A DNA stretch of 64,000 nt from Blastocatellia bacterium NZW_1522 (GCA_039793685.1 JBDRAL010000032.1:46193-110192); one strand, 5' to 3'; counted from the first letter of the stretch, positions 2,188 through 47,503 are shown. The notes: a model not told the origin generated them from the sequence alone. Program-made: numbers and translations.

Positions 2188-2721
2188 TTATTCTGGTAAC
2201 CCTAGCCAAGAGAGTGGTAGAGAGTTAAATCTGTAATGACAGTTCATGCTGTTAATGTAGTCCAAAACATCTTTGTATTTTGGATCTTTGAACCAATCAT
2301 TCAGGACATAAACATACTCGACTTTAATTCCAAGCAAGGCAACTAGCTTTGAGTATTGTTTCCTTTTGAAATCGCAAGTCTGGAGTTTTTCATCTACTGA
2401 GCCTTCGACTTCCTGGTATTTCACCTCGATGATGAAAAGCGTTTCTCTGACAATGACCAACAGGGCGTCGTCGGGAAGTAGTCTTCTTGAGATGATGCTT
2501 TGCCAGTGAACGCCTTCTTCCTCAAGAAATCCGTAAAACTCGCTTTTCCGAAAGCATCTGGCCACGCAGTCACCATGGAAGAAGATGCCCAGTCCCGCCT
2601 TGCCGAAAATTGGTTTCAGCGAATACCCCGGTATGGCTTCGAGAAGTTTTCGAAGGTCGGTCTTTTTTTCAAAAGCCAATCCGGTCAGCGTATTGGCCCC
2701 TCCGGTTCCGCCTGCTTTCAT
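2188..2721 (-). CDS. Small PD-(D/E)XK nuclease, possibly related to the catalytic half of DpnII/MboI-family endonucleases
   Basis: 177-aa ORF. GGANTLTGLAFEKK, LPDDALLV and LFIIEVKYQEVEGSVDEK resemble, from memory, the NRTGxxxE and IEV-x-FY-x-GSGSK-x-x-E blocks of R.DpnII. Its ATG overlaps the upstream methylase stop (ATGA). Confidence 0.45.
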   Translation of the reverse strand: MKAGGTGGANTLTGLAFEKKTDLRKLLEAIPGYSLKPIFGKAGLGIFFHGDCVARCFRKSEFYGFLEEEGVHWQSIISRRLLPDDALLVIVRETLFIIEVKYQEVEGSVDEKLQTCDFKRKQYSKLVALLGIKVEYVYVLNDWFKDPKYKDVLDYINSMNCHYRFNSLPLSWLGLPE

Positions 2722-3632
2722 TCTTGTGCCTCGCTTTGAAGTAAGGGTTGTTTCGCCGTTTCTCCTCGGAGCCGGTCAACAGCAAGTTTCAAAAATTCCC
2801 TTTCCAGATCAAATCCGACGAACCTCCGGCCCAGTCTGGCGCAGACGACGCCGGTCGTACCGCTGCCGCAAAACGGGTCGAGGACCAAATCATTCGGTTG
2901 CGAAGAAGCGAGCAGAATTCGTTCCAGAACCGCTTCCGGTTTCTGCGTCGGATGTTTCCCGAAACGTTTTTCGTCCTGACCTGCCGGTTTGATGTGCCAC
3001 AATGATTGCATCTGCTTGCCGTTGTTCAGCCGTTTCATTTCCTCATAGTCGAAGTAATGGCGTCCTTTGGCGTCACGCTTGGCCCAGATGATTGTCTCGG
3101 TCGCGTGCGTAAAGTAGCGGCATGACAAATTCGGCGGCGGGTTGACCTTAAACCACGCAATGTCGTTCAACACCTTGAATTCGAGCGACTGGAGGGCGAA
3201 TCCGACGCTGTAAATGTTGTGCGATGTGCCGCTAATCCAGATCGTCCCGTTCGGTTTGAGAAGCCGTTTGCATTCCTTCAGCCATTTCAGATTGAAAGCG
3301 TGCATTTCTTCAAAACTCGCGGCTTTGTCCCAATCGCCCTTGTTGACGCTGACCATTTTCCCGGCTTGGCAGGTGATTCCGCCGTTGGAAAGGAAATACG
3401 GCGGGTCGGCGAAAATCAGATCGAAGGATTCTGACTTTGCCTGCGGAAGAAGTTCGAGTGAATCTCCGTGGTAAAGCCGGATGCCGCGGGATGGGTCGGC
3501 GAAAAACGGTTCGGGTTTGGACGGCGCTTGGGCCAGACCGGTTTCCGACATGGCGTTGATGCCCTCGTCAAAATCAGGATCGGAAAAGTCGAAGAACCCT
3601 TCCTGTTTTGAGTTGAGCAATTCGCGGGCCAA
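2718..3632 (-). CDS. Beta-class DNA N6-adenine methyltransferase, DpnA / M.MboIB-like
   Basis: IFADPPYFLSNGG...VSVNKGDWDK...NLSCRYFTHATETIIWA...GKHPTQKPEAVLERIL...LDPFCGSGTTGVV is collinear with DpnA as I recall it. TTG start is preceded by AGGAA 7 nt upstream. Confidence 0.85.
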   Translation of the reverse strand: MARELLNSKQEGFFDFSDPDFDEGINAMSETGLAQAPSKPEPFFADPSRGIRLYHGDSLELLPQAKSESFDLIFADPPYFLSNGGITCQAGKMVSVNKGDWDKAASFEEMHAFNLKWLKECKRLLKPNGTIWISGTSHNIYSVGFALQSLEFKVLNDIAWFKVNPPPNLSCRYFTHATETIIWAKRDAKGRHYFDYEEMKRLNNGKQMQSLWHIKPAGQDEKRFGKHPTQKPEAVLERILLASSQPNDLVLDPFCGSGTTGVVCARLGRRFVGFDLEREFLKLAVDRLRGETAKQPLLQSEAQE

Positions 3633-3641
3633 AGTTGTTTC

Positions 3642-4511
3642 CTATTCGAGTCCCTTTGTCGCCAGAACCTCGCGCGCGGCGGATCGATCCCCCGTGCAAC
3701 TGATTCGGCGCGGTGCGTCGAAATATTCGAGATGAAATCCGAGATCGCCGTAAAGCTTTATGATTCTTTCAGTTGCCTGATTTGAAAGAACCACCGGTCC
3801 GTTATGACGACTGAGCCATTCAGCGGCGCGTACTTGAGCTTCCCACGAAAAACCACCGGCGGAATATGACGTGAAATCCACGTCGTAGGGTGGGTCGGCG
3901 TAGATGAAGTCGTCCGGCTCTACGGGAATTTTCTCGAAATCGCCCTGTGTGAACGTCCATTCCTTCAGGACAGAGCGGTAACTATAAAATTCTTTAACGT
4001 AATTTATCGTTTTATAACGTCCGAAGGGGACGTTGAATTCTCCGCTCCGGTTGAAACGACACAGGCCGTTAAAGCAGGTCCGATTGAGGTAGTAGAAAAG
4101 TTGCGCCGCCTCGGGGGTCTGAAAGTTCCCGGTTCGAATCAGTTCATTGAACCGGTCTCGGTTTTCGCCGAAGGCGGTTACATCATTTTTTAGCTCCAGC
4201 GTGATTTCCAAGCCCTGCTGCAACTGTTTGTAGAAATTGATCAGATGCGGGTTGAAGTCGTTCAACAGGGCATTCGTTGGACGAAGCCCGAGTGCAACGC
4301 CGAGTCCGCCGCAAAAAGGTTCCACCAGTCTCCGGTTTGAAAACGGCTCCCAGATTTTGAGGAGCGTTGGAACGAGCCAGCGCTTCCCGCCCGCCCATTT
4401 AAGGGGCGGCGTGAGCGTTGTCTTTTCTTCCACCCGCTTTTGAATTGGCTCGAAAGCAAAAAGCGGAATCTGGACTTTCGGTTGTGACCGACGGAGAGCG
4501 GTTTGGGGCAT
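3642..4511 (-). CDS. dam: Dam-family (alpha-class) DNA adenine methyltransferase, DpnM-like, probably GATC-specific
   Basis: LKWAGGKRWL, EPFCGGLGV, NDFNPHLINFYKQL, FNGLCRFN...FNVPFGRYK and DFIYADPPYD are all present. Confidence 0.88.
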   Translation of the reverse strand: MPQTALRRSQPKVQIPLFAFEPIQKRVEEKTTLTPPLKWAGGKRWLVPTLLKIWEPFSNRRLVEPFCGGLGVALGLRPTNALLNDFNPHLINFYKQLQQGLEITLELKNDVTAFGENRDRFNELIRTGNFQTPEAAQLFYYLNRTCFNGLCRFNRSGEFNVPFGRYKTINYVKEFYSYRSVLKEWTFTQGDFEKIPVEPDDFIYADPPYDVDFTSYSAGGFSWEAQVRAAEWLSRHNGPVVLSNQATERIIKLYGDLGFHLEYFDAPRRISCTGDRSAAREVLATKGLE

Positions 4512-9571: not shown

Positions 9572-10876
9572 TCAGTTCGCCGGTTTGTATGCCCAGACCC
9601 CTGAGCGACCTTCCTTCATTTCGGACAGGGTACAGACGAAGACGATGCCTTTGCTTTCGGCGATGGCCGAGCAATCCGTGGCCGGGAAAACTTCCGATTG
9701 CCGGACGATCTTCTGCCCCCGATAGTCAATGCCGACCAGCGAACTGTAGGAGATTGAATTCGGGAAGCCGGCCTGAACTTTCGAGCCCGAGCGGTCACCG
9801 TCGTAAACCTTGCGAAAATCGGGTCTCGTTTCGCGATAGGACGTCCACACGAGCGACCCGACCGGGATGTGCCCTTCGCGGCAATACGGGCCGAGTACCC
9901 CCTCCGCGCGCCAGATTTCCTTTCCCGAAAGTACGTCGAGTCCGAGAAAGGCGTAAAGCGTTTTGCCTTTCGCATCCTTGCCGGTGGCGGCGGCAATCAG
10001 GACGCCCTCCTGCATCGCAATGGCCTGACTGCACGGGGAGGCGGTCCATCTGACCGCGCCGGTTTTCAAATCGAGCGAGTACAGGGAATCGACCGCGAAG
10101 GTGGCCTTGCCGCTTCCTTCGGCGATGGTCGTCAGTTCCGAAACGACGAGATAGACGGCGTCTTTTTCAATCCGGCTCAATTTGACGGAATCATTCCGGT
10201 CGAAGGTCCAGAGCTGTTTGCCGGTGCTCCGGTCGTACCCGACGATGACGGTTCGCGTCGCGGTACCGTCGAGCCGCTGCGTTTTCAGAAGAACGACGGA
10301 ATCGTTGGCCCCGATGAGCGTTGCATTCTGGCGCGGGCCGAGTTGCGGGAGCGGCGTTGACCAGCGTTTTTTGCCGGTGGCGGCGTCCACCGCCGTGACG
10401 GTCGTTTTTTCGGTGACGAGGAACTTTTCAATACCGGAAATGACGAAGACGTCGTTTTCAAAGGAAACGAAATCGTCGGTCATTTCGGAAACGTCGAAGC
10501 CGGAGGTTTCCGCACCCGTCTTCGGGTCGGCGACGTGGACTTTTTTATTGAAATCGAGGGTAAAGAGTTTCCCGCCGGAAACGGCGAGGATGCGGGCATC
10601 CGATGAAGTCCGCGACCAGCGTTCCTTTCCCGTGGCGGCATCGAGTGCGTAGGTTTTGTATTCCGAATCCGGTTTTCCGGCGGTAAAACCGGCCAGAAAA
10701 AGTGTTCCGTCGGAAACGAGCGGTTGAGTGACCGAGGCAATCGGAGCAGTCCAGATCGGTTTGATTTCCTCGCCGACCCGGACAGGTTTGGAGAGCGTGC
10801 CGCCGCCGAGGCTACAGGCGGTCAAGCCAAAGGCCGCCGACAACGCGACGGCGAAATTCCGCAGGAATGAAGTCAT
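9572..10876 (-). CDS. PQQ-like beta-propeller lipoprotein (BamB-like fold), paralog A
   Basis: Lipobox LTAC. Repeated ...DAATGKERW / ...TGKKRW / ...TGKQLW / ...TGAVRW propeller blades. About 60 % identical by eye to the next ORF. Confidence 0.7.
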   Translation of the reverse strand: MTSFLRNFAVALSAAFGLTACSLGGGTLSKPVRVGEEIKPIWTAPIASVTQPLVSDGTLFLAGFTAGKPDSEYKTYALDAATGKERWSRTSSDARILAVSGGKLFTLDFNKKVHVADPKTGAETSGFDVSEMTDDFVSFENDVFVISGIEKFLVTEKTTVTAVDAATGKKRWSTPLPQLGPRQNATLIGANDSVVLLKTQRLDGTATRTVIVGYDRSTGKQLWTFDRNDSVKLSRIEKDAVYLVVSELTTIAEGSGKATFAVDSLYSLDLKTGAVRWTASPCSQAIAMQEGVLIAAATGKDAKGKTLYAFLGLDVLSGKEIWRAEGVLGPYCREGHIPVGSLVWTSYRETRPDFRKVYDGDRSGSKVQAGFPNSISYSSLVGIDYRGQKIVRQSEVFPATDCSAIAESKGIVFVCTLSEMKEGRSGVWAYKPAN

Positions 10877-25044: not shown

Positions 25045-28000
25045 TCAAAGGACGTCCTTGCTACGAAGAATGATGGCGGTCGTCATCAGAAGAAAAAGGA
25101 AGAAGACGCCCAAAACACCGAAATTCAACGGAATCGTGCCGAAGTCGTTGACGAATCCGACGAACTTGCTCTTGTCTTCGGGCGGATATTCGACCTTCGG
25201 CGCTTCCGGTTCGGGATCGAGTTGGGGAATGTCGGGCTTTGAGCCGGTGCTCTTGAGCGAATCCTCGAAATCCCGCTTGAAGTCCTCGATCTTGCGCTGC
25301 TGCCGTTTGCGGTACTCGGTGAGTTCTTCCTTGAAATCGTCGATTTTCTTCGTGTTGTCCCGTTTGATGCGTCCGATTTCGCCGGCCGGGTCGTCTTCGC
25401 TGTCATGGCCGCGAAGTTGTTTCATTCCGTTTTCTTCGAGGCCTACCCGTTTCATCAGGTCATATGACCACATGGCCGGCATGACCATTCCGATCCCTTT
25501 GGAAATCCCCTTGTTCGGCAGCAGTAATCCGCCGAACAGAATTTGGGGAATCAGGATGAGTGGAACGAGGCTGGTCGCCATTTCCGAGGTTTTCACCGCC
25601 GATGAAACGAGCAGGCCGGTGGTGATGCCGACCATGTTCGACAGAATCAATCCCGACAACAGAAGCAGGGGATTCCCCGGAAGGGATTCGAGCGGCGCGG
25701 TCACTCCGTACATCAGGCCGCACTGAATCACTCCGATGATCATCAGAATGAACAGCTTTGAGGCGAGGTAGGGCAGGATGCCGAGGTTCACCATGCGCTC
25801 GCGGTTATACACGCTGGATTCCTTGACCACTTCGCGGGCGGCATTCGAGCAACCGAACCAGATGGAGGAGAGCGCGAGGATGAAGTACGGGAAATCGCGC
25901 GTCCAGTCAGACCCCACCGCCAGCGCGGTCAGCAGGGCGATGACCGGGGCCTGGCCGAGGAGAATGCCGAGGTTGAGTTTGTCGGCAAGCAGGACCTGCG
26001 CGTACCGGCGCGACAGCGTGAAGGTCTGCCGGATGCTCTGGAAGATCGAGTTGTCGTTGGAAGCCTTGCGAACCGGCTGGGCGGTCTGCTGTTTCAACTC
26101 GCCGAGCGGCTGGGCAATGTATTTCCGATACGCCGGTGACTGCTCGTATTTCTGCTGCCAGCCGACGGCGACCTGATCGCTGTTCGGATCGCCGAGGGTG
26201 TCGAACAGGTCCTTGATGCTTTTGATGCCGAAGTAATCGAGCGCCTCAAGAGGAGGCCCGAACCAGACCAGTCGTCCGCGCATCATCACCACGATCTTGT
26301 CGAACAGCTTGACGTTCTCCATCGCATGGGTGGTCAGGATGACCGAGTGGCCGCTTTCCGAAATCTGTCGGAAAAGCTGCATGATCTTTTCCTCGGTGCC
26401 GGGGTCGAGGCCGGAGGTCGGCTCGTCGAGGTAGATGATGCCGGGCTTGGTGATGAGTTCGACGGCGATGGAGACGCGTTTGCGCTGTCCGCCCGACAAC
26501 TGGCCGATGGGGACGTTCCGGCGCGTGGTCAGGCCGGTCACGTCCATCACTTCATTGATGATGTGGTCGATTTCGTCGCTCGTCGTGTCGGAGGACAGCC
26601 GCATTTTGGCGACGTAATAAAGCGTGCGGTAGACGGTCAGTTCGCGGTGGATGATGTCGTCCTGCGGAACGTACCCGATGGATTGCTTGAAGCTGTTGAT
26701 GTTGTCGTACAGGTTCAGACCGTTGACCAGCACAAACCCCTTGTCCGCCGGACGCATGCCGTTGAGGGCATCCATCAGCGTGGATTTGCCCGCGCCCGAC
26801 GGCCCGAGCAGGCCGACGAATTCATTGGCCGGAATGGAAAGTCGCACCCGGTCGAGCAGTTTGATCATTCCCGACCCGTCGCGGTTTTTGACTTCTTTCG
26901 TAATGTCGAGGATGTCGATGCGGGCCTTGCTGCGCGTATCGAAGACGGTCACGCCCTGACCGTCGAGGGCGAACATGTACGGTCCGATCTGGACGACGTC
27001 CTGCGGCGATACCTGGCAACGGCTGACGCGCTGGCCGTTGACGTAGACGCCATTGGTGCTTCCCAGATCCTCGATGGCCGTGGTGGAACCCTGAAGCACG
27101 AATTTGGCGTGGTTTTTCGAAATCTGGAGGACATCGAGCTGGATGTCGTTGTCGTCGGTTCGTCCGACCGTCAGGACATTGGGCTGCCGGCCGGTCCCGA
27201 AGTTGCGTCGGATGAGAAAATTCCGTGACTCGCCACCCATCGAGGCCGAGGCTCCGGCCTTCATCACCATCGTGCCGCCCGAATCGTCCGCGGGAAGTGC
27301 CGCCGAAACGTCGGCGGGATTGATGAACCGGAGTTCGGGACCGCCAAGCCCGATTTGAATCAGGTTGCCGTGTTTGAGGGGCGTCGGCGCGGCAATTCGC
27401 TGGCCGTTGACGAGCGTTCCGTTGAACGACCCCAAATCGGCGACCGAAAAACTTCCGCCTTCATTGAGGATCTGGGCATGACGACGGGAAACGGTCGGAA
27501 AATAAGCCGGGTCGAGCTGAATCTGGTTGCCGGGTTCGCGACCGATGCCGGTGGTCCCGTTTGAAAGCGAAAACCGTTCGGGACGGGGGCCGTTCGTCAG
27601 CTCCAGAAAGACCGCGCCGCCGTTGCCGGTTGCCGAGGGCGGGCCGGATTGCGGGGCGATGTCCTTGAGGGAAGGCGTGTAGTTCGGGGGAGGCTGGGCG
27701 GCGCTTTCTCCGGTGATGGGCTGGCTGACCGGCCGGGGCATCGGGGGCGCTGCCTGCGCCGGTGCTTCCCAGTCGATGGCGTCAATCCGGATGGTCGGTC
27801 CGCCCTGTCCGAACTGAATCAGGACGCCCACGCCAAGCTGGACCGGCTGCGTCATCTGGACATTGTTGACGAACGTTCCGTATGTGCTTTGGAGATCGGT
27901 CAGTACCAGCAGGCCGTTCCGGACGCTGATTTCCGCGTGGCGACGTGAAACGCCACGATCGCCTTCGGAAAATGCCAGCCGGCACTGCGACGGGTCGCGA

Positions 28001-28080
28001 CCGACGTAGAAAGTCGTGTCGGTAATTTCCAGGCGATGACCGGCCTGCGCGCCGTTGAGATGGGTGATGACGAGTTTCAT
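25045..28080 (-). CDS. Triple-FHA / ABC ATPase / ABC-2 permease fusion (Rv1747-like architecture)
   Basis: Three FHA cores: FYVGRD...SRRHAEI...STYGTFVN; TGIGRE...SRRHAQI...SFNGTLVNG; LTVGRT...SKNHAKF...STNGVYVNG. Then GPSGAGKST, LSGGQRKRVSIA, IIYLDEPTSGLD, then TM helices. Confidence 0.88.
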   Translation of the reverse strand: MKLVITHLNGAQAGHRLEITDTTFYVGRDPSQCRLAFSEGDRGVSRRHAEISVRNGLLVLTDLQSTYGTFVNNVQMTQPVQLGVGVLIQFGQGGPTIRIDAIDWEAPAQAAPPMPRPVSQPITGESAAQPPPNYTPSLKDIAPQSGPPSATGNGGAVFLELTNGPRPERFSLSNGTTGIGREPGNQIQLDPAYFPTVSRRHAQILNEGGSFSVADLGSFNGTLVNGQRIAAPTPLKHGNLIQIGLGGPELRFINPADVSAALPADDSGGTMVMKAGASASMGGESRNFLIRRNFGTGRQPNVLTVGRTDDNDIQLDVLQISKNHAKFVLQGSTTAIEDLGSTNGVYVNGQRVSRCQVSPQDVVQIGPYMFALDGQGVTVFDTRSKARIDILDITKEVKNRDGSGMIKLLDRVRLSIPANEFVGLLGPSGAGKSTLMDALNGMRPADKGFVLVNGLNLYDNINSFKQSIGYVPQDDIIHRELTVYRTLYYVAKMRLSSDTTSDEIDHIINEVMDVTGLTTRRNVPIGQLSGGQRKRVSIAVELITKPGIIYLDEPTSGLDPGTEEKIMQLFRQISESGHSVILTTHAMENVKLFDKIVVMMRGRLVWFGPPLEALDYFGIKSIKDLFDTLGDPNSDQVAVGWQQKYEQSPAYRKYIAQPLGELKQQTAQPVRKASNDNSIFQSIRQTFTLSRRYAQVLLADKLNLGILLGQAPVIALLTALAVGSDWTRDFPYFILALSSIWFGCSNAAREVVKESSVYNRERMVNLGILPYLASKLFILMIIGVIQCGLMYGVTAPLESLPGNPLLLLSGLILSNMVGITTGLLVSSAVKTSEMATSLVPLILIPQILFGGLLLPNKGISKGIGMVMPAMWSYDLMKRVGLEENGMKQLRGHDSEDDPAGEIGRIKRDNTKKIDDFKEELTEYRKRQQRKIEDFKRDFEDSLKSTGSKPDIPQLDPEPEAPKVEYPPEDKSKFVGFVNDFGTIPLNFGVLGVFFLFLLMTTAIILRSKDVL

Positions 28081-28094
28081 AGTCGGTTGAATCT

Positions 28095-28838
28095 TTATCC
28101 GAAGGGCCAGAACCTGCGTTTGGCGACGTTGCGGCGTCCGGGTTCGACCAGGTCCGTCACGCCGTGTTTCCGGAATCGGGAAACCAGTTCATCGACACCC
28201 TTTTCGAGTTTGAAGTCCATTTCCTCAAGGTAGACCGGGATGACCGAGTAGAAATACACCGTTTTTTCTTCATCGAGACGGCAAACGTGAAACCCCGGCG
28301 GAAGTGCGAGCGGGGGAATGATGAGCGCGCAAACGAACCCCACCGAATTGTCGAGCGGCGCCGGGGGATCGCCGTTCGGAACGGTGTGTCCGGGACCGAG
28401 CCAGGTATTGTAAAGGTGCGGAAAACGGGCGAGGAATTTCAAAAGGCGAATCGGCCAGTAATTCCGCTCATCCTGAAAGGCATCCTCGGTCAAGGGCCAG
28501 TTGGCCGGAAGATGGATGGCCAGTTCGGCATGCCGATACCGTTCCGCGCCGGGAACGACGTTCATCGGCAGATCCGACATCCCGGTCGTGACCATGACGT
28601 GAGAGGAATTCGCTCCGTTCGGTTTGGTCCAGTGGACGTCGATGTGAACCTTGTCCGAAATGAGTTCGTGGAAAACCATCTCGACCGGCCCGAGATGGCG
28701 CGAGATGTGATCTTCAAGGAAGGGCAAGTCCTCGGAAGGGGGCGGGAGGGTTAAGGGGCCTTCCGCCACGTCTTCTTCATAGCGATAAATTCGCGAACCG
28801 CCGGGAGAATATTCGGCGTCATCGTCGAAATCGTTCAT
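28095..28838 (-). CDS. Suppressor-of-fused (SUFU)-like domain protein
   Basis: VMVTTGMSDLPMNV...AELAIHLPANWPL...WPIRLLKFLARFPHLYNTWLGPGHTVPNG matches the bacterial SUFU-like family as recalled. Confidence 0.6.
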   Translation of the reverse strand: MNDFDDDAEYSPGGSRIYRYEEDVAEGPLTLPPPSEDLPFLEDHISRHLGPVEMVFHELISDKVHIDVHWTKPNGANSSHVMVTTGMSDLPMNVVPGAERYRHAELAIHLPANWPLTEDAFQDERNYWPIRLLKFLARFPHLYNTWLGPGHTVPNGDPPAPLDNSVGFVCALIIPPLALPPGFHVCRLDEEKTVYFYSVIPVYLEEMDFKLEKGVDELVSRFRKHGVTDLVEPGRRNVAKRRFWPFG

Positions 28839-42058: not shown

Positions 42059-42655
42059 ATGCACGTCCAAATCCCGGTCACGCAAAATCTCATGGTCGAG
42101 ACAATCGATAAAACCTTTGACACCATCCTCCACCATCTGGACGCCCGGGCGGTCGGAGAGGGCGGTGAGGGCCATGGAATGACCGAGGCGGACACTTTCC
42201 GGACGCTCAACTTTTCCCTGATGCTGAGTATTTCCCACTACATCGAGGATCGGTTTGTGGAAAAACGGCTGACCGGAATGTTTTTGGCGTCGTTTCAGAA
42301 ACTGTCGTTCTTCGTCGAGCAGCAGGCCCGATACTTGAACCTTGCCAAAACCGGCTCAAAGGTTATGGTCTTTGCCGAACCCGATATTCCGCCCCCGGTG
42401 TCCGCCGAACGGCTGACCTTTTACCGCCCCGCCCATGAGGATCTCGGCAAATTCTGGATCGTCCTGAGTGACGACCCGGAATTCAGAATCGCCCTCGCGG
42501 CCCGCGAGACGACCCCGGTTCGGGTATCCGGTGGCGGCGAGGGCAGTCGAAAAAGAAGTTTCGAGGGATTCTGGACCTATCGCGACGAGTATATCGACGC
42601 GATTCGTGACAGTATCTGCGGTTTTTACGTCGATCGGGCGTTCGAAATTTCCTGA
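42059..42655 (+). CDS. Stand-alone DICT-like sensory domain protein (tentative)
   Basis: FLASFQKLSFFVEQQARYLNLAKTGSKVMVFAEPD and WIVLSDDPEFRIALAARE resemble the DICT domain pattern as recalled. Converges on the Ubl gene. Confidence 0.45.
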   Translation: MHVQIPVTQNLMVETIDKTFDTILHHLDARAVGEGGEGHGMTEADTFRTLNFSLMLSISHYIEDRFVEKRLTGMFLASFQKLSFFVEQQARYLNLAKTGSKVMVFAEPDIPPPVSAERLTFYRPAHEDLGKFWIVLSDDPEFRIALAARETTPVRVSGGGEGSRKRSFEGFWTYRDEYIDAIRDSICGFYVDRAFEIS

Positions 42656-42670
42656 GTCGGGACAGGGCGT

Positions 42671-42922
42671 TCAGTCCCGACCACCCCGCGTATTGAGGAA
42701 AATGCTGATCGTGTCGCCGGAAACGATCCCGGCCTGGGCCAGCGTCTGTGCCGGGCGAAGTTGAAGATTCCGGAAGACGAGGGTTGTCCCCGGAACATTC
42801 GGAATCAAACCGGCATCGGCCAGATTCCGCAAAATGGCATCCGAGGTCATGTCGTCGGAAACCGTGACTTCGACTTCTTTCCCGTTGTTCTCGTTGCGAA
42901 AAGTGATATCGATGTCGGACAT
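42671..42922 (-). CDS. Ubiquitin-like beta-grasp protein with C-terminal ...RGG-RD
   Basis: 83 aa. Pattern is beta-beta-alpha-beta-beta: DIDITFRN / KEVEVTVSD / SDAILRNLADAGLI / TLVFRN / DTISIFLN. Codons checked by hand: ...I F L N T R G G R D stop. Lies next to the E1 gene. Confidence 0.65.
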   Translation of the reverse strand: MSDIDITFRNENNGKEVEVTVSDDMTSDAILRNLADAGLIPNVPGTTLVFRNLQLRPAQTLAQAGIVSGDTISIFLNTRGGRD

Positions 42923-42989: not shown

Positions 42990-43304
42990 TCAGGCCGTCG
43001 TGTGATTGCACCGTCGGCAGAAACCGCTACCGCCATCGAAGCAATCCGCCTGATGGCAGATCTCGCAGCGGGCGGCGCGTTGCTCGCGTCTCACCATGAA
43101 AAGACCGGGCGAGGTGGATGTGGGCAGGAGCGGATAACTTTCCTGATGAAGCTGTTGGTACCGCCGCCGGGGAAGGAGAAAGTAGTCATCCCGGCCTTCC
43201 TCCTTGTCGCGGCGCGCCCGGTGCAGGTCGTAAAACTCGGTCGCGAATGAAACCGCGACCACGAGCATGAAAAATCCTGCCCCGAGAATTCCCAAAGCTT
43301 CCAT
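42990..43304 (-). CDS. Small membrane-anchored Cys/His-rich protein
   Basis: 104 aa. N-terminal TM ALGILGAGFFMLVVAVSFA. C-terminal CEICHQADCFDGGSGFCRRCNH. Strong GGAGGA 6 nt before the ATG, immediately after the E1 stop. Confidence 0.6.
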   Translation of the reverse strand: MEALGILGAGFFMLVVAVSFATEFYDLHRARRDKEEGRDDYFLLPRRRYQQLHQESYPLLPTSTSPGLFMVRREQRAARCEICHQADCFDGGSGFCRRCNHTTA

Positions 43305-43322: not shown

Positions 43323-44591
43323 TCAGGAAGTGGGTGAAAGTTCCCAGTCCTTCGAAAAAACCCCGTTAATGTCGTTCGACAGCTCGCAGGCAAAACGGTT
43401 TCCACCAGTGTCCGCGATGGTCAATATCTGCAAAGGCGGAATCCCGAGGTCACACAATCGTTTGGCGGCGATTTCATTTGAAACCGGTTCGCCGCCGAAG
43501 TTCCCCCGTGAAAATCCGGTGACGGCCTCAACGTAATCCGAACCGGCCACTTCCGGCAATCCTTCGCTGCCGTCGGGCCGCTGGTGACACTGCCCGCAAT
43601 TCAGTTCGTCATCGAAAATCCGGTGCGCGGGACGATCGAACGCAATCCAGTTTCCGCAATTTCGGCACCGGATGCGCCGGATGAAACGTGACCCAAGTTC
43701 CACCCGGACACCTTTTCCGAAACGACGTTCCAGTGTGTCGAGCAGTTCGCCGACCGTTGTTTCCCGCGCCGAGCAATCCAGTTCGACGATGTCCTCGAAT
43801 CGGCCGTGGGCAAGGCAGTGATCATCGGGGGGCAGGGTAATCCGGTGAAATCCATGAGTTGCGCCATTGTAGGCAAGCCGCACGCCGTACGCCACGGCCT
43901 CCCCGTGCAAAATTTTGACCGCCTCCTGCGCCTGAAGCGCCGAAACCAGCGCCGACGTGACCTGGACGGTTGGCATTCGCTCCTCCGCCACATACCGTTT
44001 TTTGACCTGTTCGCACGAATCGTACCGCGACTGGGCATCGGCGATCTGGTCCGCCGTCACCGTGCATTCGAAACAGGCCCCGGTATCGCCGTAGGTCGTG
44101 ACGCTTCCCGAGAGTTCGAAAATTCCGCCGTTGATCCAGGGTTTTCCGACCGACCGGGCCGCCCGGTTCATCGAAAGGCGGGCTTCGTCGTTGTCCACGC
44201 AGCCGAGAATCACGTCCATCCGGCGGTAAATGCCGAGGCCGAGTTCCCAGACGATATCGGCGTCGAGCGCGGTCACGACCGACGTCGTTTCAAGGGCCAT
44301 TTCGGTCGCGCGGGCGGCGGCGACCGAGGCTTTGCGCTTTCCGATGTCTTCCGGACGAAACAGGACCGTCCGGCTCAGGTTGGAAATCGAAATCGTGTCG
44401 AAATCGACCACCAGAATCCGCCCGACGCCGAGCAGGACGAGATTCTTTAAAACTTCATTGCCCAGCGCGCCCGCGCCGATGACCATCACGCGGGCGTTCC
44501 GAAGAACATCCTGTCGCCACCAGCCGATACGCGCCTGCCGGTCGAACGGCGTTTCGACGGCTTCGGCTTTCTCCCTGAATTCAAAAGACAT
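43323..44591 (-). CDS. E1-like ThiF/MoeB-superfamily adenylyltransferase with about 160-aa C-terminal extension
   Basis: VMVIGAGALGNEVLKNLVLLGVGRILVVDFDTISISNLSR (nucleotide site). CFEC at 173-176. Candidate catalytic Cys193 (YDSCEQ). Extra CRNC...CGQC pairs. Tail is RLCDLGIPPLQILTIADTGG. Confidence 0.8.
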   Translation of the reverse strand: MSFEFREKAEAVETPFDRQARIGWWRQDVLRNARVMVIGAGALGNEVLKNLVLLGVGRILVVDFDTISISNLSRTVLFRPEDIGKRKASVAAARATEMALETTSVVTALDADIVWELGLGIYRRMDVILGCVDNDEARLSMNRAARSVGKPWINGGIFELSGSVTTYGDTGACFECTVTADQIADAQSRYDSCEQVKKRYVAEERMPTVQVTSALVSALQAQEAVKILHGEAVAYGVRLAYNGATHGFHRITLPPDDHCLAHGRFEDIVELDCSARETTVGELLDTLERRFGKGVRVELGSRFIRRIRCRNCGNWIAFDRPAHRIFDDELNCGQCHQRPDGSEGLPEVAGSDYVEAVTGFSRGNFGGEPVSNEIAAKRLCDLGIPPLQILTIADTGGNRFACELSNDINGVFSKDWELSPTS

Positions 44592-45461: not shown

Positions 45462-46760
45462 GTGGCGATTCGAAAGGTACGACAACGCTTGCGGAACGGG
45501 TGGATGCCCGGCAATGTAAGATGCCTTCGCAACCGGCTGTCAAGCGCGGCGTCAAATCCGGGTTGGGCGACGGTGGACAAATTCTTCGTTTCGGAGTTTG
45601 AAGTGGAAAAAATCCGCAAACCCTTTCGGCCCCGGCGGCTGGCGGTCATCGGCATCACCCTCGCGATTCTCGTCGCCGTCGCCTGCGGCCCGACGCTCAA
45701 CCACGTCCGGGCGACGGTTCTTTTAATGCGTTTCGGCGGCATGGCGGTTCAGGACGTGCCCGCCGTGTTCGGAAACCGGCCCCTCAAGCGGGAAGAAGTG
45801 TCGTTTGACGGCCCCGAAGGTCCGGTGAAGGCAAGAATTTACTGGCCGGAAGGCGTTTCCGACCCGCCGGGCGTGGTGATGCTCCACGGTATTCACAAGG
45901 ACGGCTACACCGAACCCCGCATGGTCGCCTTCGCCGAGGCAGTTGCGGGCGCGGGCATCGCCGTGATGACGCCGACCATTCAGGAACTGGCGGATTACCG
46001 CGTTGACGCCGCCTCGGTCGCGACCATCGGATCGGCCGCGAAGTACTTCCGGAAAAAACTCAACAATCGCCGCGTCGGGCTGATGGGCATGTGTTTCGGC
46101 GGCGGTTTGTGCCTGATGACCGCCGGAAATCCGAAATTCTCCGACGATGTGGGATTTGTCACTGCCATCGGTTCGCACGACGATCTGGCGCGCATCGCCC
46201 GGTTTTTCGTCACGAATGAAATCGAACGACCCGATGGTTCAAAGTTGAAGCTCAACGCCGACCCGTACGGCCCGATGGTCATCGTCTACTCGCGGGTGAA
46301 CGACTTTTTCACCCCCGCCGACGCGCCGGTCGCGCGCGACGCGCTCCGTTTGTGGCTGTGGGGCGAGTTCGACAACGCGCGCAAAATGGCCGAAAAGCTC
46401 TCGCCGGAAGGAAAAAGCCGTATCGGAATCATTTTCGACGGCAAGTATCCGCAACTCGCGCCCGAAATGTTGAAGGTCATCGAGCAAAAGTCGAAGGAGA
46501 TGGCCGCCGTGTCGCCGGACGGTTTTTTAAAAGATGTCAAAGTGCCGGTTTTTCTGCTCCACGGGGCGCACGACAACGTCGTTCCGCCCTCCGAATCGCT
46601 CTGGCTGGAACGCGGGTTAAAAGCGAACGGGAAGGTACACACGCTGGTCAGCCCGGCGGTCGGCCACGTCGAAATGGCCGCCGACACGACGGTTGGCGAC
46701 AAATGGGAGGTGATTCACTTCCTCGCGCAAATCGTGGACACGGCCAAAGGCGCGAAGTGA
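45462..46760 (+). CDS. Membrane-anchored dienelactone-hydrolase-family alpha/beta hydrolase
   Basis: TM LAVIGITLAILVAVACG. Nucleophile elbow GMCFGG. LLHGAHDNVVP. GHVEM. Start uncertain: GTG 45462, ATG 45504 or GTG 45573. Confidence 0.7.
   Translation: MAIRKVRQRLRNGWMPGNVRCLRNRLSSAASNPGWATVDKFFVSEFEVEKIRKPFRPRRLAVIGITLAILVAVACGPTLNHVRATVLLMRFGGMAVQDVPAVFGNRPLKREEVSFDGPEGPVKARIYWPEGVSDPPGVVMLHGIHKDGYTEPRMVAFAEAVAGAGIAVMTPTIQELADYRVDAASVATIGSAAKYFRKKLNNRRVGLMGMCFGGGLCLMTAGNPKFSDDVGFVTAIGSHDDLARIARFFVTNEIERPDGSKLKLNADPYGPMVIVYSRVNDFFTPADAPVARDALRLWLWGEFDNARKMAEKLSPEGKSRIGIIFDGKYPQLAPEMLKVIEQKSKEMAAVSPDGFLKDVKVPVFLLHGAHDNVVPPSESLWLERGLKANGKVHTLVSPAVGHVEMAADTTVGDKWEVIHFLAQIVDTAKGAK
45514..45543 (-). 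promoter_or_regulatory. Candidate promoter for the mscS-E1-Ubl operon
   Basis: Minus strand: TTGACA (45543-45538), 18-nt spacer, TTACAT (45519-45514). Confidence 0.3.
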
Positions 46761-46843: not shown

Positions 46844-47503
46844 ATGTCGCAGGGACAGTATTTCGAAGCCGATCACGTCACGCCGGAACAACTCGATACG
46901 CTCTGGGCGTTCGGCTGGCGTCATTTCGGCACCTATTTTTTTCGCTACTGGAGCAACTACACGCCGAAGGGGCTGTGCCACGTCATGCCTCTGCGTCTCA
47001 ATCTGTCGAGTTTTCAACCGTCCGACAGTCATCGGCGCATCTCAAGGAAAAACAAAGACTTACGGGTAGTAATCCGGGAAACCGACATTTCCGACGAAAT
47101 CGAGGCACTGTTTTTCCGTCACCGGCAGCGATTCACCCACAACGTTCCGGAGTCCATCCACACCTTCCTGTCGTTCTACCCGGCAACGATTCCCTGTGAA
47201 AACCGCGAGGTGGCGGTCTATGACGGCGACCGGCTGGTAGCCGTCAGTTTTCTCGACCTCGGCCACAAGGCCACGTCGAGCGTCTACGGCGTGTTCGACC
47301 CCGATTACTCGAAACGCAGCCTCGGGATTTTCACGATGCTTGAGGAAATCCGTTTCAGCCAGGAACGCGGCGGGACGTACTACTACCCCGGCTACGCCTA
47401 CCACGAACCCTCCCACTACGACTACAAAAAGCGCTTTCGCGGTCTGGAATACTTCGACTGGGAAGGCGGCTGGAATCCACTGACGGACGAAGGAAAATCG
47501 TAA
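46844..47503 (+). CDS. Arginyl/leucyl-tRNA--protein transferase family protein (ATE/Bpt-like)
   Basis: LDTLWAFGWRHFGTYFFRY, FQPSDSHRRISRKNKDL, SSVYGVFDPDYSKRSLGIFTMLEEIRFSQERGGTYYYPGYAYHEPSHYDYKKRFRGLEYFDW. Confidence 0.65.
   Translation: MSQGQYFEADHVTPEQLDTLWAFGWRHFGTYFFRYWSNYTPKGLCHVMPLRLNLSSFQPSDSHRRISRKNKDLRVVIRETDISDEIEALFFRHRQRFTHNVPESIHTFLSFYPATIPCENREVAVYDGDRLVAVSFLDLGHKATSSVYGVFDPDYSKRSLGIFTMLEEIRFSQERGGTYYYPGYAYHEPSHYDYKKRFRGLEYFDWEGGWNPLTDEGKS

Follow-up and report, generated by a model that had tools for sequence, protein, structure and literature searches.

A ubiquitin-type modifier encoded as a precursor in Chloracidobacterium-type Acidobacteriota, with a candidate JAB peptidase at a separate locus

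Results

We analysed a 64 kb stretch of acidobacterial DNA, hereafter the window, in which an 83-aa product (Ubl) is encoded at the end of a three-gene unit on the minus strand, together with an E1-like activating enzyme (E1) and a small zinc-ribbon protein (ZnR). By its sequence the product appears to be the precursor of a genuine ubiquitin-type modifier, ending in …RGG-RD. In our judgement it is probably the pro-Ubl of a eukaryote-like Ub/E1/E2/JAB system, trimmed by a JAB peptidase that is encoded elsewhere after the operon was split. New chemistry would then not be involved, the locus being a known bacterial ubiquitin system in rearranged form. The features that the analysis draws on are the following.

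42671-42922, minus strand: Ubl precursor ORF, 83 aa, with the translated C-terminus LNTRGG-RD-stop
42680..42922, minus strand: mature Ubl, residues 1-81, a ubiquitin-type beta-grasp protein with the C-terminus LNTRGG
42671..42679, minus strand: C-terminal pro-peptide Arg82-Asp83 and the stop codon; its predicted removal exposes Gly81
42990..43304, minus strand: ZnR, small membrane-anchored zinc-ribbon protein, 104 aa, conserved middle gene of the unit
43323..44591, minus strand: E1-like activating enzyme, 422 aa, Pfam ThiF 4e-50
42059-42655, plus strand: DICT-domain protein, 198 aa, converging on the Ubl stop with a 15-nt gap; rpsA is next
45462-46760, opposite strand to the unit: S9/DLH-like alpha/beta hydrolase, ~900 bp upstream of the unit, beyond the MscS gene

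A ubiquitin-type protein with residues after the Gly-Gly

Translation of the minus strand yielded MSDIDITFRNENNGKEVEVTVSDDMTSDAILRNLADAGLIPNVPGTTLVFRNLQLRPAQTLAQAGIVSGDTISIFLNTRGGRD and a stop (83 codons), with the C-terminal end reading ISIFLNTRGGRD*. The codons at 42683-85 and 42680-82 specify Gly80 and Gly81, that at 42677-79 Arg82, that at 42674-76 Asp83 and that at 42671-73 the stop. This residue-by-residue check bears out the preliminary description of the locus, in which Ubl was said to be encoded as a precursor of the form …NTRGG-RD. The identical protein was predicted on independent JGI and Logan assemblies, and the codon-position GC pattern of the ORF is that of real genes in the window (58.5% GC).

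The match of Ubl to Pfam Rad60-SLD reached 27.4 bits, above the gathering score of 23.8, and there were weaker Pfam matches to ubiquitin and YukD, the latter at 21 bits and under the cut-off of 27. No Pfam match to ThiS or MoaD was obtained, and the match to a ThiS sequence in PDB had an E-value of only 0.92; the sequence profile matches ubiquitin, not ThiS. Ubl is 28% identical to human ubiquitin in a BLASTP alignment that places RGG on RGG. An AlphaFold2 model (pLDDT 88.4) has a beta-grasp fold with a disordered C-terminal tail. Its best fold matches in PDB are ubiquitin (TM 0.82-0.87, 23-28% identity), and the Caldiarchaeum ubiquitin 6fj7 is among the matches.

Among 5.8 billion proteins searched, 25 relatives were found, 21 of them intact, and each of the 25 came from Chloracidobacterium-like Acidobacteriota. 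The motif LNTRGG was invariant in 21/21 intact orthologues (alignment A1), while the tails after the GG were 1-20 aa long and conserved in neither sequence nor length (examples: Y, Q, RA, RY, GRYQNHE, RQPLNSGNRIVVGYCS and SQSSRTVLAGKFSSSKFEKGA). The same combination of GG and a variable tail was present across the GTDB loci. Because an invariant LNTRGG followed by a freely varying tail is the signature of a pro-Ubl, the orthologues point to a precursor here as well, in agreement with the expectation of the preliminary description that the GG would be invariant and the tail variable. Ubl is also nearly invariant at the N-terminal hairpin DxTFRNENNGKEVEVTVSDDM, and a single lysine, Lys15, is invariant.

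The E1-ZnR-Ubl unit and its surroundings

The unit is read from E1 through ZnR, after a gap of 18 nt, to Ubl, after a gap of 67 nt. A scan of the unit for consensus promoters and terminators gave nothing useful above the shuffled expectation. The E1 consists of a ThiF/MoeB adenylation domain, with the ATP-binding loop GAGALGNE at 39, and an extra C-terminal domain at ~350-410. Its cysteines include Cys193 in the crossover loop (RYDSC) and the pairs 173/176, 309/312 and 332/335. Cys193 was invariant across 17 diverse members of the E1 family (alignment A2), in which the ATP-binding loop and several of the Cys pairs were also kept. In PDB the closest sequences were from eukaryotic Uba1, namely its active adenylation domains (8e-26), followed by MoeB (1e-18) and ThiF (6e-17). 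The structural model (pLDDT 85.8) matched the fold of ThiF over the core and that of UBA3 over ~455 columns. Scores against the NCBIfam ThiF/MoeB models were far under the curated cut-offs (e.g. 121 vs 275 bits). Pfam annotation revealed no rhodanese domain in the E1 and no thiamin, Moco or cysteine-synthase genes near the unit. Features of eukaryote-like ubiquitin systems are thus found both in Ubl (fold, RGG, invariant GG) and in the adjacent E1 (ThiF domain, Cys193); a RING-type E3, which occurs only in the fullest prokaryotic ubiquitin systems, was not seen, ZnR having no RING match.

ZnR has an N-terminal TM helix and the C-terminal motif RCEICHQADCFx5GFCRRCNH (Cys80/83/88/96/99, His84/101), with ligands that suffice for about one zinc site. 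Across homologues the motif reads RCExCHQxDxFx5GxCxRC[NH]H. Homologous ORFs lie between E1 and Ubl at the locus of the Chloracidobacterium thermophilum type (L004) and at L015, L016, L017 and L018, and locus L007 has two tandem copies and a third of inverted architecture, in which the TM helices follow the motif. At L004 the gene had been missed by the gene caller, and an ORF on the opposite strand was predicted in its place. ZnR matched nothing in Pfam, NCBIfam or PADLOC, and no Prok-RING, RING or PHD profile even at E<=1, although a control protein from locus L010 does match Prok-RING_1; an assignment as a Prok-RING E3 was rejected for want of profile support. An exhaustive HMMER search of 1.84 billion proteins yielded only 61 representatives at E<=1e-3, most of which covered the ~35-aa Cys motif, located at either end of small membrane proteins. 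ZnR occurs in the acidobacterial clade only, and from its place in the operon and its anchoring in the membrane it may be an adaptor or an E3-like factor.

The gene upstream of the unit, on the same strand, encodes an MscS channel. The convergent DICT gene adjoins the unit in 4/4 of the genomes with a split arrangement (the window, L015, L016 and L004) and is absent from the clade with linked genes; it may reflect simple synteny or be a functional partner. A gene for a Bpt/ATE-type aminoacyl-tRNA-protein transferase of the N-degron pathway is located at 46844-47503 (+), ~2 kb from the E1 gene. This proximity is probably a coincidence; at the C. thermophilum-type locus, ExbB/ExbD and SecDF are found on that side of E1 instead.

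Search for a peptidase and an E2 in the window

A tblastn search of the 64 kb window with cognate JAB and E2 seeds gave no match, and Pfam annotation of about 45 window genes, which is essentially all of them, revealed no JAB/MPN, Ulp-like or papain-like domain. The earlier statement that no cognate peptidase is encoded nearby accordingly holds for the entire window. The only peptidases in it are the housekeeping Lon/ClpX/ClpP ~20 kb away, to which two generic alpha/beta hydrolases may be added. The Lon/ClpXP cluster (19-23 kb) was rejected as the processing enzyme, being of housekeeping type and not travelling with the unit in the other fetched loci. The S9-like hydrolase was rejected as not conserved with the unit, its place at L004 being taken by ExbB/ExbD.

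With PADLOC, only generic partial matches to E1 domains were obtained for the unit (best 1.9e-16; BilD 1.5e-8), and none for Ubl or ZnR. Pfam annotation of the window identified no T7SS genes. There is no defence-island or mobile-element context at the unit, and the neighbours rpsA, MscS and DICT are conserved across genera.

Linked and split loci

For the comparative analysis, E1 loci were obtained by exact-protein look-up and by a scan of one genome per GTDB species, and were annotated with local HMMs for Ubl, ZnR, E2 and JAB. Upon iteration the Ubl HMM drifted into the E2 family, so the Ubl set was filtered by length and matches to E2 and JAB were removed. The loci compared all come from MAGs or metagenome contigs, and "unlinked" sometimes means outside the flank covered (about 3-10 kb a side).

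The E1 family is widespread, with relatives that are 35-60% identical over the full length. A JAB gene was located within 10 kb in 67 of the 77 Ubl-bearing loci of this family, the window being counted among the 77. The usual order of the linked genes is E1-Ubl-E2-JAB(-JAB), and Prok-RING_1 proteins are present at some loci; linked loci with a UQ_con E2, one or two JABs and Prok-RING_1, such as L010, were found with the window's E1 as the query. A eukaryote-like Ub/E1/E2/JAB system is present in Acidobacteriota, and its linked version also occurs in Chloroflexota, in Planctomycetota and in further phyla.

A sister acidobacterial clade (L007, L017, L018), in which the E1 is 52-54% and the Ubl 78% identical to those of the window, has the gene order E1-ZnR(-ZnR)-Ubl-E2-JAB, with E2 and JAB directly after Ubl. 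The Ubls of this clade end in RGG+Y, RGG+A and RGG+S. Their E2-like protein (IFHPHVWPDGKVC) has a sub-threshold match to UQ_con (E=9e-5); the two such matches obtained for IFHPHVWPDGKVC proteins of relatives, both sub-threshold, had E-values of 5e-5 and 9e-5. The Rpn11-like JAB of 243 aa carries the full motif HTHPGFGVFMSGTD, which conforms to the JAB/MPN+ pattern HxHx7Sx2D.

The window's own clade comprises the window, L015 (a MAG with an E1 that is 91% identical), L016 (Chloracidobacterium sp. CP2_5A) and L004 (C. thermophilum type). All four loci have E1-ZnR-Ubl beside a convergent DICT gene, and in none of them was an E2 or a JAB found within the flank covered (roughly 3-10 kb a side). Since E1-ZnR-Ubl stands without the pair throughout this clade, the E2-JAB pair would have been split off in the clade ancestor. 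The record of L015 (JAYRXR010000179.1), the GTDB genome closest to the window, is titled 'Actinomycetota bacterium isolate EBPR_ori4bin.3'. The locus is clearly Chloracidobacterium-like in sequence, so it looks as if either the label is wrong or the bin is mixed.

At the Chloroflexota and Planctomycetota loci (L029-L094), most linked Ubls end exactly in ...TAG or ...VAG with no tail, and one or two JABs are still present; within Chloroflexota many Ubls end exactly in ...TAG and others have short tails. The presence of JAB even where Ubl would need no precursor processing is consistent with a role in deconjugation. Anaerolineae have their genes in the order E1-(gap)-E2-Ubl-JAB, with an E1 of about 550 aa as the longest ORF, a length for which the longest start was taken and the 5' end is possibly over-extended.

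Several versions of the E1 family, at L005/L022 (Longimicrobium) and L008, are located beside genes for a relaxase or a type IV secretion coupling protein. Their Ubls end in ...DAG plus a tail, and some of these loci encode E2-JAB fusion proteins. The acidobacterial unit, chromosomal and syntenic, differs in this respect from such copies on mobile elements.

JAB genes at other loci in the clade

With the JAB of L007 as the query we recovered a distinct tier of orthologues of 256-269 aa that were 43-50% identical to it, several of which are from Chloracidobacterium. In strain CP2_5A, the JAB (P0162) is on a contig of 118.6 kb and the E1 on another of 38.6 kb. For a genome of the C. thermophilum type, a longest contig of 2,507,150 nt is listed with JAB (P0283) as well as with E1 (P0036). 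At three loci of Chloracidobacterium sp. (L011, L012 and L095), the JAB gene lies beside RNase D and is preceded by a gene for a conserved 127-aa protein (L011 7621-8004, L012 7621-8004, L095 9621-10004), with a 4-nt overlap between its stop and the start of JAB. The 127-aa protein matches nothing in Pfam and lacks an E2 motif, and no E2 was found at the three loci. Because the neighbour of JAB is here a protein that is not E2-like, an E2 step cannot be taken for granted throughout the clade, and it may be missing or replaced in Chloracidobacterium sensu stricto. A UBC-like E2 does precede JAB in a Blastocatellia MAG (L013) and on contig L014.

The latter contig, 189 kb in size and from the window's JGI sample, was the only one with E2 and JAB found in that metagenome sample, and it was considered as the cassette of the window organism. 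Its raw tetranucleotide correlation with the window is 0.87, but the TETRA z-score r is 0.43, as compared to 0.78-0.86 within the window. The identity matrices of E1 and JAB have matching clade structures, in which L014 is paired with the lineage of E1 P0029. The contig was dropped on the basis of TETRA and the identity matrices, and is probably from a related organism, not from that of the window. Because the two matrices match in clade structure, the window's lineage is predicted to carry a JAB of the P0164/P0166/P0273 type. Of two scans of JGI metagenomes for the window's JAB, using JAB queries from the window's clade, one returned nothing and the other only the Chloracidobacterium-type locus L095; it is from the relatives that we infer an unlinked JAB gene in the window's own genome.

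The preliminary description had concluded that the lack of a neighbouring peptidase implied either an unlinked protease or a different chemistry. The adjacent JAB in the sister clade and the JABs at other loci in the window's clade favour the former, and the latter is not needed. Since the relatives show a split operon, the apparent anomaly dissolves.

Proposed mechanism and alternative explanations

In the scheme that we propose, an Rpn11-like zinc metallopeptidase of the JAB/MPN+ family would cut pro-Ubl after Gly81 and remove Arg-Asp. The adjacent E1 would adenylate Gly81 and then load Ubl on Cys193 as a thioester, from where it would move to a UBC-like E2 (HPH...C motif) and further to targets, possibly with the help of the membrane-anchored ZnR. 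The same JAB would probably also strip the modifier off targets. With regard to gene order, an ancestral operon E1-ZnR-Ubl-E2-JAB would have been split such that E1-ZnR-Ubl stayed beside the DICT gene and rpsA, while JAB, in some lineages with E2, was relocated to another locus. What this scheme says of cleavage, of activation and conjugation, of ZnR and of the JAB of the window's genome is predicted from comparative sequence data.

A tail of two amino acids could in principle be nibbled off by a carboxypeptidase, and the S9/DLH-like hydrolase gene is only ~900 bp upstream of the unit. It could accordingly be imagined that the tail is removed by a non-JAB peptidase, be it a carboxypeptidase, an aminoacyl hydrolase or the S9-like hydrolase (45462-46760), and that JAB serves only in deconjugation. 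We find this improbable since conservation of the unit does not extend to the hydrolase, the tails of the orthologues are up to 15-20 aa long with wholly different sequences, and a JAB gene directly adjoins in the sister clade. Because the tails are long and unrelated, an endopeptidase that recognises the Ubl body and the GG would be required, as is the case for JAB/Rpn11 (PMC6043591). It is very hard to believe that Ubl is never processed or conjugated and acts as a non-covalent ubiquitin-fold adaptor like YukD/EsaB of type VII secretion, despite the weak YukD match, the label 'YukD/EsaB family' given to relatives by some database sources and the lack of E2 and JAB in the window. The GG is invariant while everything beyond it drifts freely, Ubl is always co-transcribed with an E1 that retains the catalytic Cys, and orthologues are found in E1-E2-JAB operons. 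With these observations, a sub-cut-off score and no T7SS context in the window, membership in the YukD/EsaB family was rejected.

Some features of the locus also recall a sulfur carrier of the ThiS/MoaD/QbsE/CysO type, which after removal of the tail would form a thiocarboxylate for the biosynthesis of a cofactor or metabolite. The known C-terminally extended bacterial carriers, QbsE and CysO, are of this type, and the E1 does score against the NCBIfam ThiF/MoeB models. These scores are however far under the cut-offs, the E1 lacks a rhodanese domain and there are no cofactor genes near; Ubl has no Pfam match to ThiS or MoaD and is of ubiquitin type in both profile and fold. Moreover, the family is linked to UBC-like E2s, which are absent from sulfur-carrier systems. 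Membership in the ThiS/MoaD group was rejected on these grounds, and we attach hardly any probability to such a function. The preferred explanation is thus a pro-Ubl trimmed by an unlinked JAB.

Comparison with known systems

The ubiquitin system of Caldiarchaeum subterraneum consists of CsUb, E1, E2, a small RING E3 and CsRpn11 (PMC6043591, PMC5654768). CsUb is made as an 87-aa precursor from which nine residues are removed by CsRpn11, which cuts exactly after the GG and is also active in deconjugation (PMC6043591). The processing of a precursor by JAB is thus already established in an archaeal system, and related acidobacterial operons have already been noted. The system described here resembles that of Caldiarchaeum in having a ubiquitin-fold modifier with residues after the GG, an Rpn11-like JAB, a single E1 and a UBC-type E2, of which JAB and E2 are known from relatives. 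It differs in that the Caldiarchaeum system is encoded by five genes in one operon, whereas JAB and E2 are here located away from the E1-Ubl locus. There is no RING E3, and a single membrane-anchored zinc-ribbon protein takes its slot in the gene order. Finally, the host is a bacterium (Acidobacteriota) and the system is known here from sequences alone.

Operons related to that of Caldiarchaeum are carried by Actinobacteria, Planctomycetes and Acidobacteria according to a review (PMC4197634), and bacterial operons of this kind, including acidobacterial ones, are already in the literature (PMC4197634, PMC1779556, PMC3417536). Nothing relevant on ubiquitin in Chloracidobacterium was found in the literature searched. 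The component set and the E1 family are the same as in the bacterial Ub/E1/E2/JAB(/RING) operons that were reportedly predicted by comparative genomics by Iyer, Burroughs and Aravind in 2006 and by Burroughs and coworkers in 2011. Those operons are described as mobile and sporadic, whereas the Chloracidobacterium-type unit is syntenic with rpsA and the DICT gene across genera, is split from JAB and carries a ZnR gene.

C-terminally extended sulfur carriers are trimmed by JAMM peptidases prior to E1-type adenylation in the QbsE/QbsD and CysO/Mec pairs. Like QbsE and CysO, Ubl is a beta-grasp carrier with residues after the GG for removal by a JAMM/JAB peptidase. QbsE and CysO are, however, sulfur carriers of the ThiS/MoaD type encoded in biosynthetic clusters, whereas Ubl is of ubiquitin type and its family is linked to UBC-like E2s.

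A logic of E1-like, E2-like and peptidase components, in which the C-terminus of a Ubl or a target is adenylated, is described for type II CBASS Cap2/Cap3, Bil and Bub (PMC10557695, PMC10097602, PMC11601596). The system considered here shares this logic with the antiphage systems but differs from them in its gene context, which is neither a defence island nor mobile, and in that PADLOC detected only partial E1-domain matches. The E2 of the relatives retains its Cys, whereas Bub uses oxyester intermediates (PMC11601596). Membership in CBASS, Bil or Bub is supported neither by PADLOC nor by the gene context and was rejected.

Conservation of the modifier and significance

In comparison with the C. 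thermophilum-type orthologue, encoded at 9798-10091 of locus L004, the Ubl of the window is 89% identical. The corresponding values for other proteins are 77% for ribosomal protein S1, 62% for the DICT protein, 61% for the E1 and 44% for ZnR. The mature Ubl is thus very highly conserved, above S1 and far above its own E1 and ZnR. Along with this conservation, the particular features of the system are the split arrangement, the stable synteny across genera and ZnR as an undescribed zinc-ribbon partner.

We tentatively raise the idea, which is more speculative than likely, that the ubiquitin system of Chloracidobacterium-type Acidobacteria is not a mobile defence module but a chromosomal 'housekeeping' one that is inherited vertically. 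ZnR would then be a new kind of E3 or substrate adaptor that guides modification at the membrane. In Chloracidobacterium sensu stricto, the system could do without the canonical E2, or the 127-aa partner of JAB would take its place. If this were true, the mature modifier would be under extreme purifying selection of the kind seen for ubiquitin, as judged from its identity relative to S1 and E1.

Ubiquitin-type systems that resemble those of eukaryotes are rare in bacteria, hardly any of them has been characterised, and they are relevant to the origin of ubiquitin signalling. The case described here illustrates that a missing neighbour need not mean new chemistry: the pro-peptide and the invariant GG predict a JAB, and JABs are found elsewhere in related genomes. 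C. thermophilum, whose Ubl has a tail of 16 aa, is cultivable and has the E1-ZnR-Ubl unit, which makes it a tractable organism in which the function of a stably inherited bacterial ubiquitin, the reason for the conservation of the modifier and the purpose of the zinc-ribbon partner could be addressed.

Additional genes in the window

Two further regions of the window were recorded. A gene at 28095-28838 (-) encodes a 247-aa protein that matches Pfam SUFU (Suppressor of fused) with an E-value of 5e-44 and adjoins a large FHA-domain ABC transporter (25045-28080). At 2188-4511 (-), adjacent DNA methyltransferases of the N6_N4_Mtase and D12 classes are located beside a weak match to a PD-(D/E)XK nuclease, and this region is likely a restriction-modification module.
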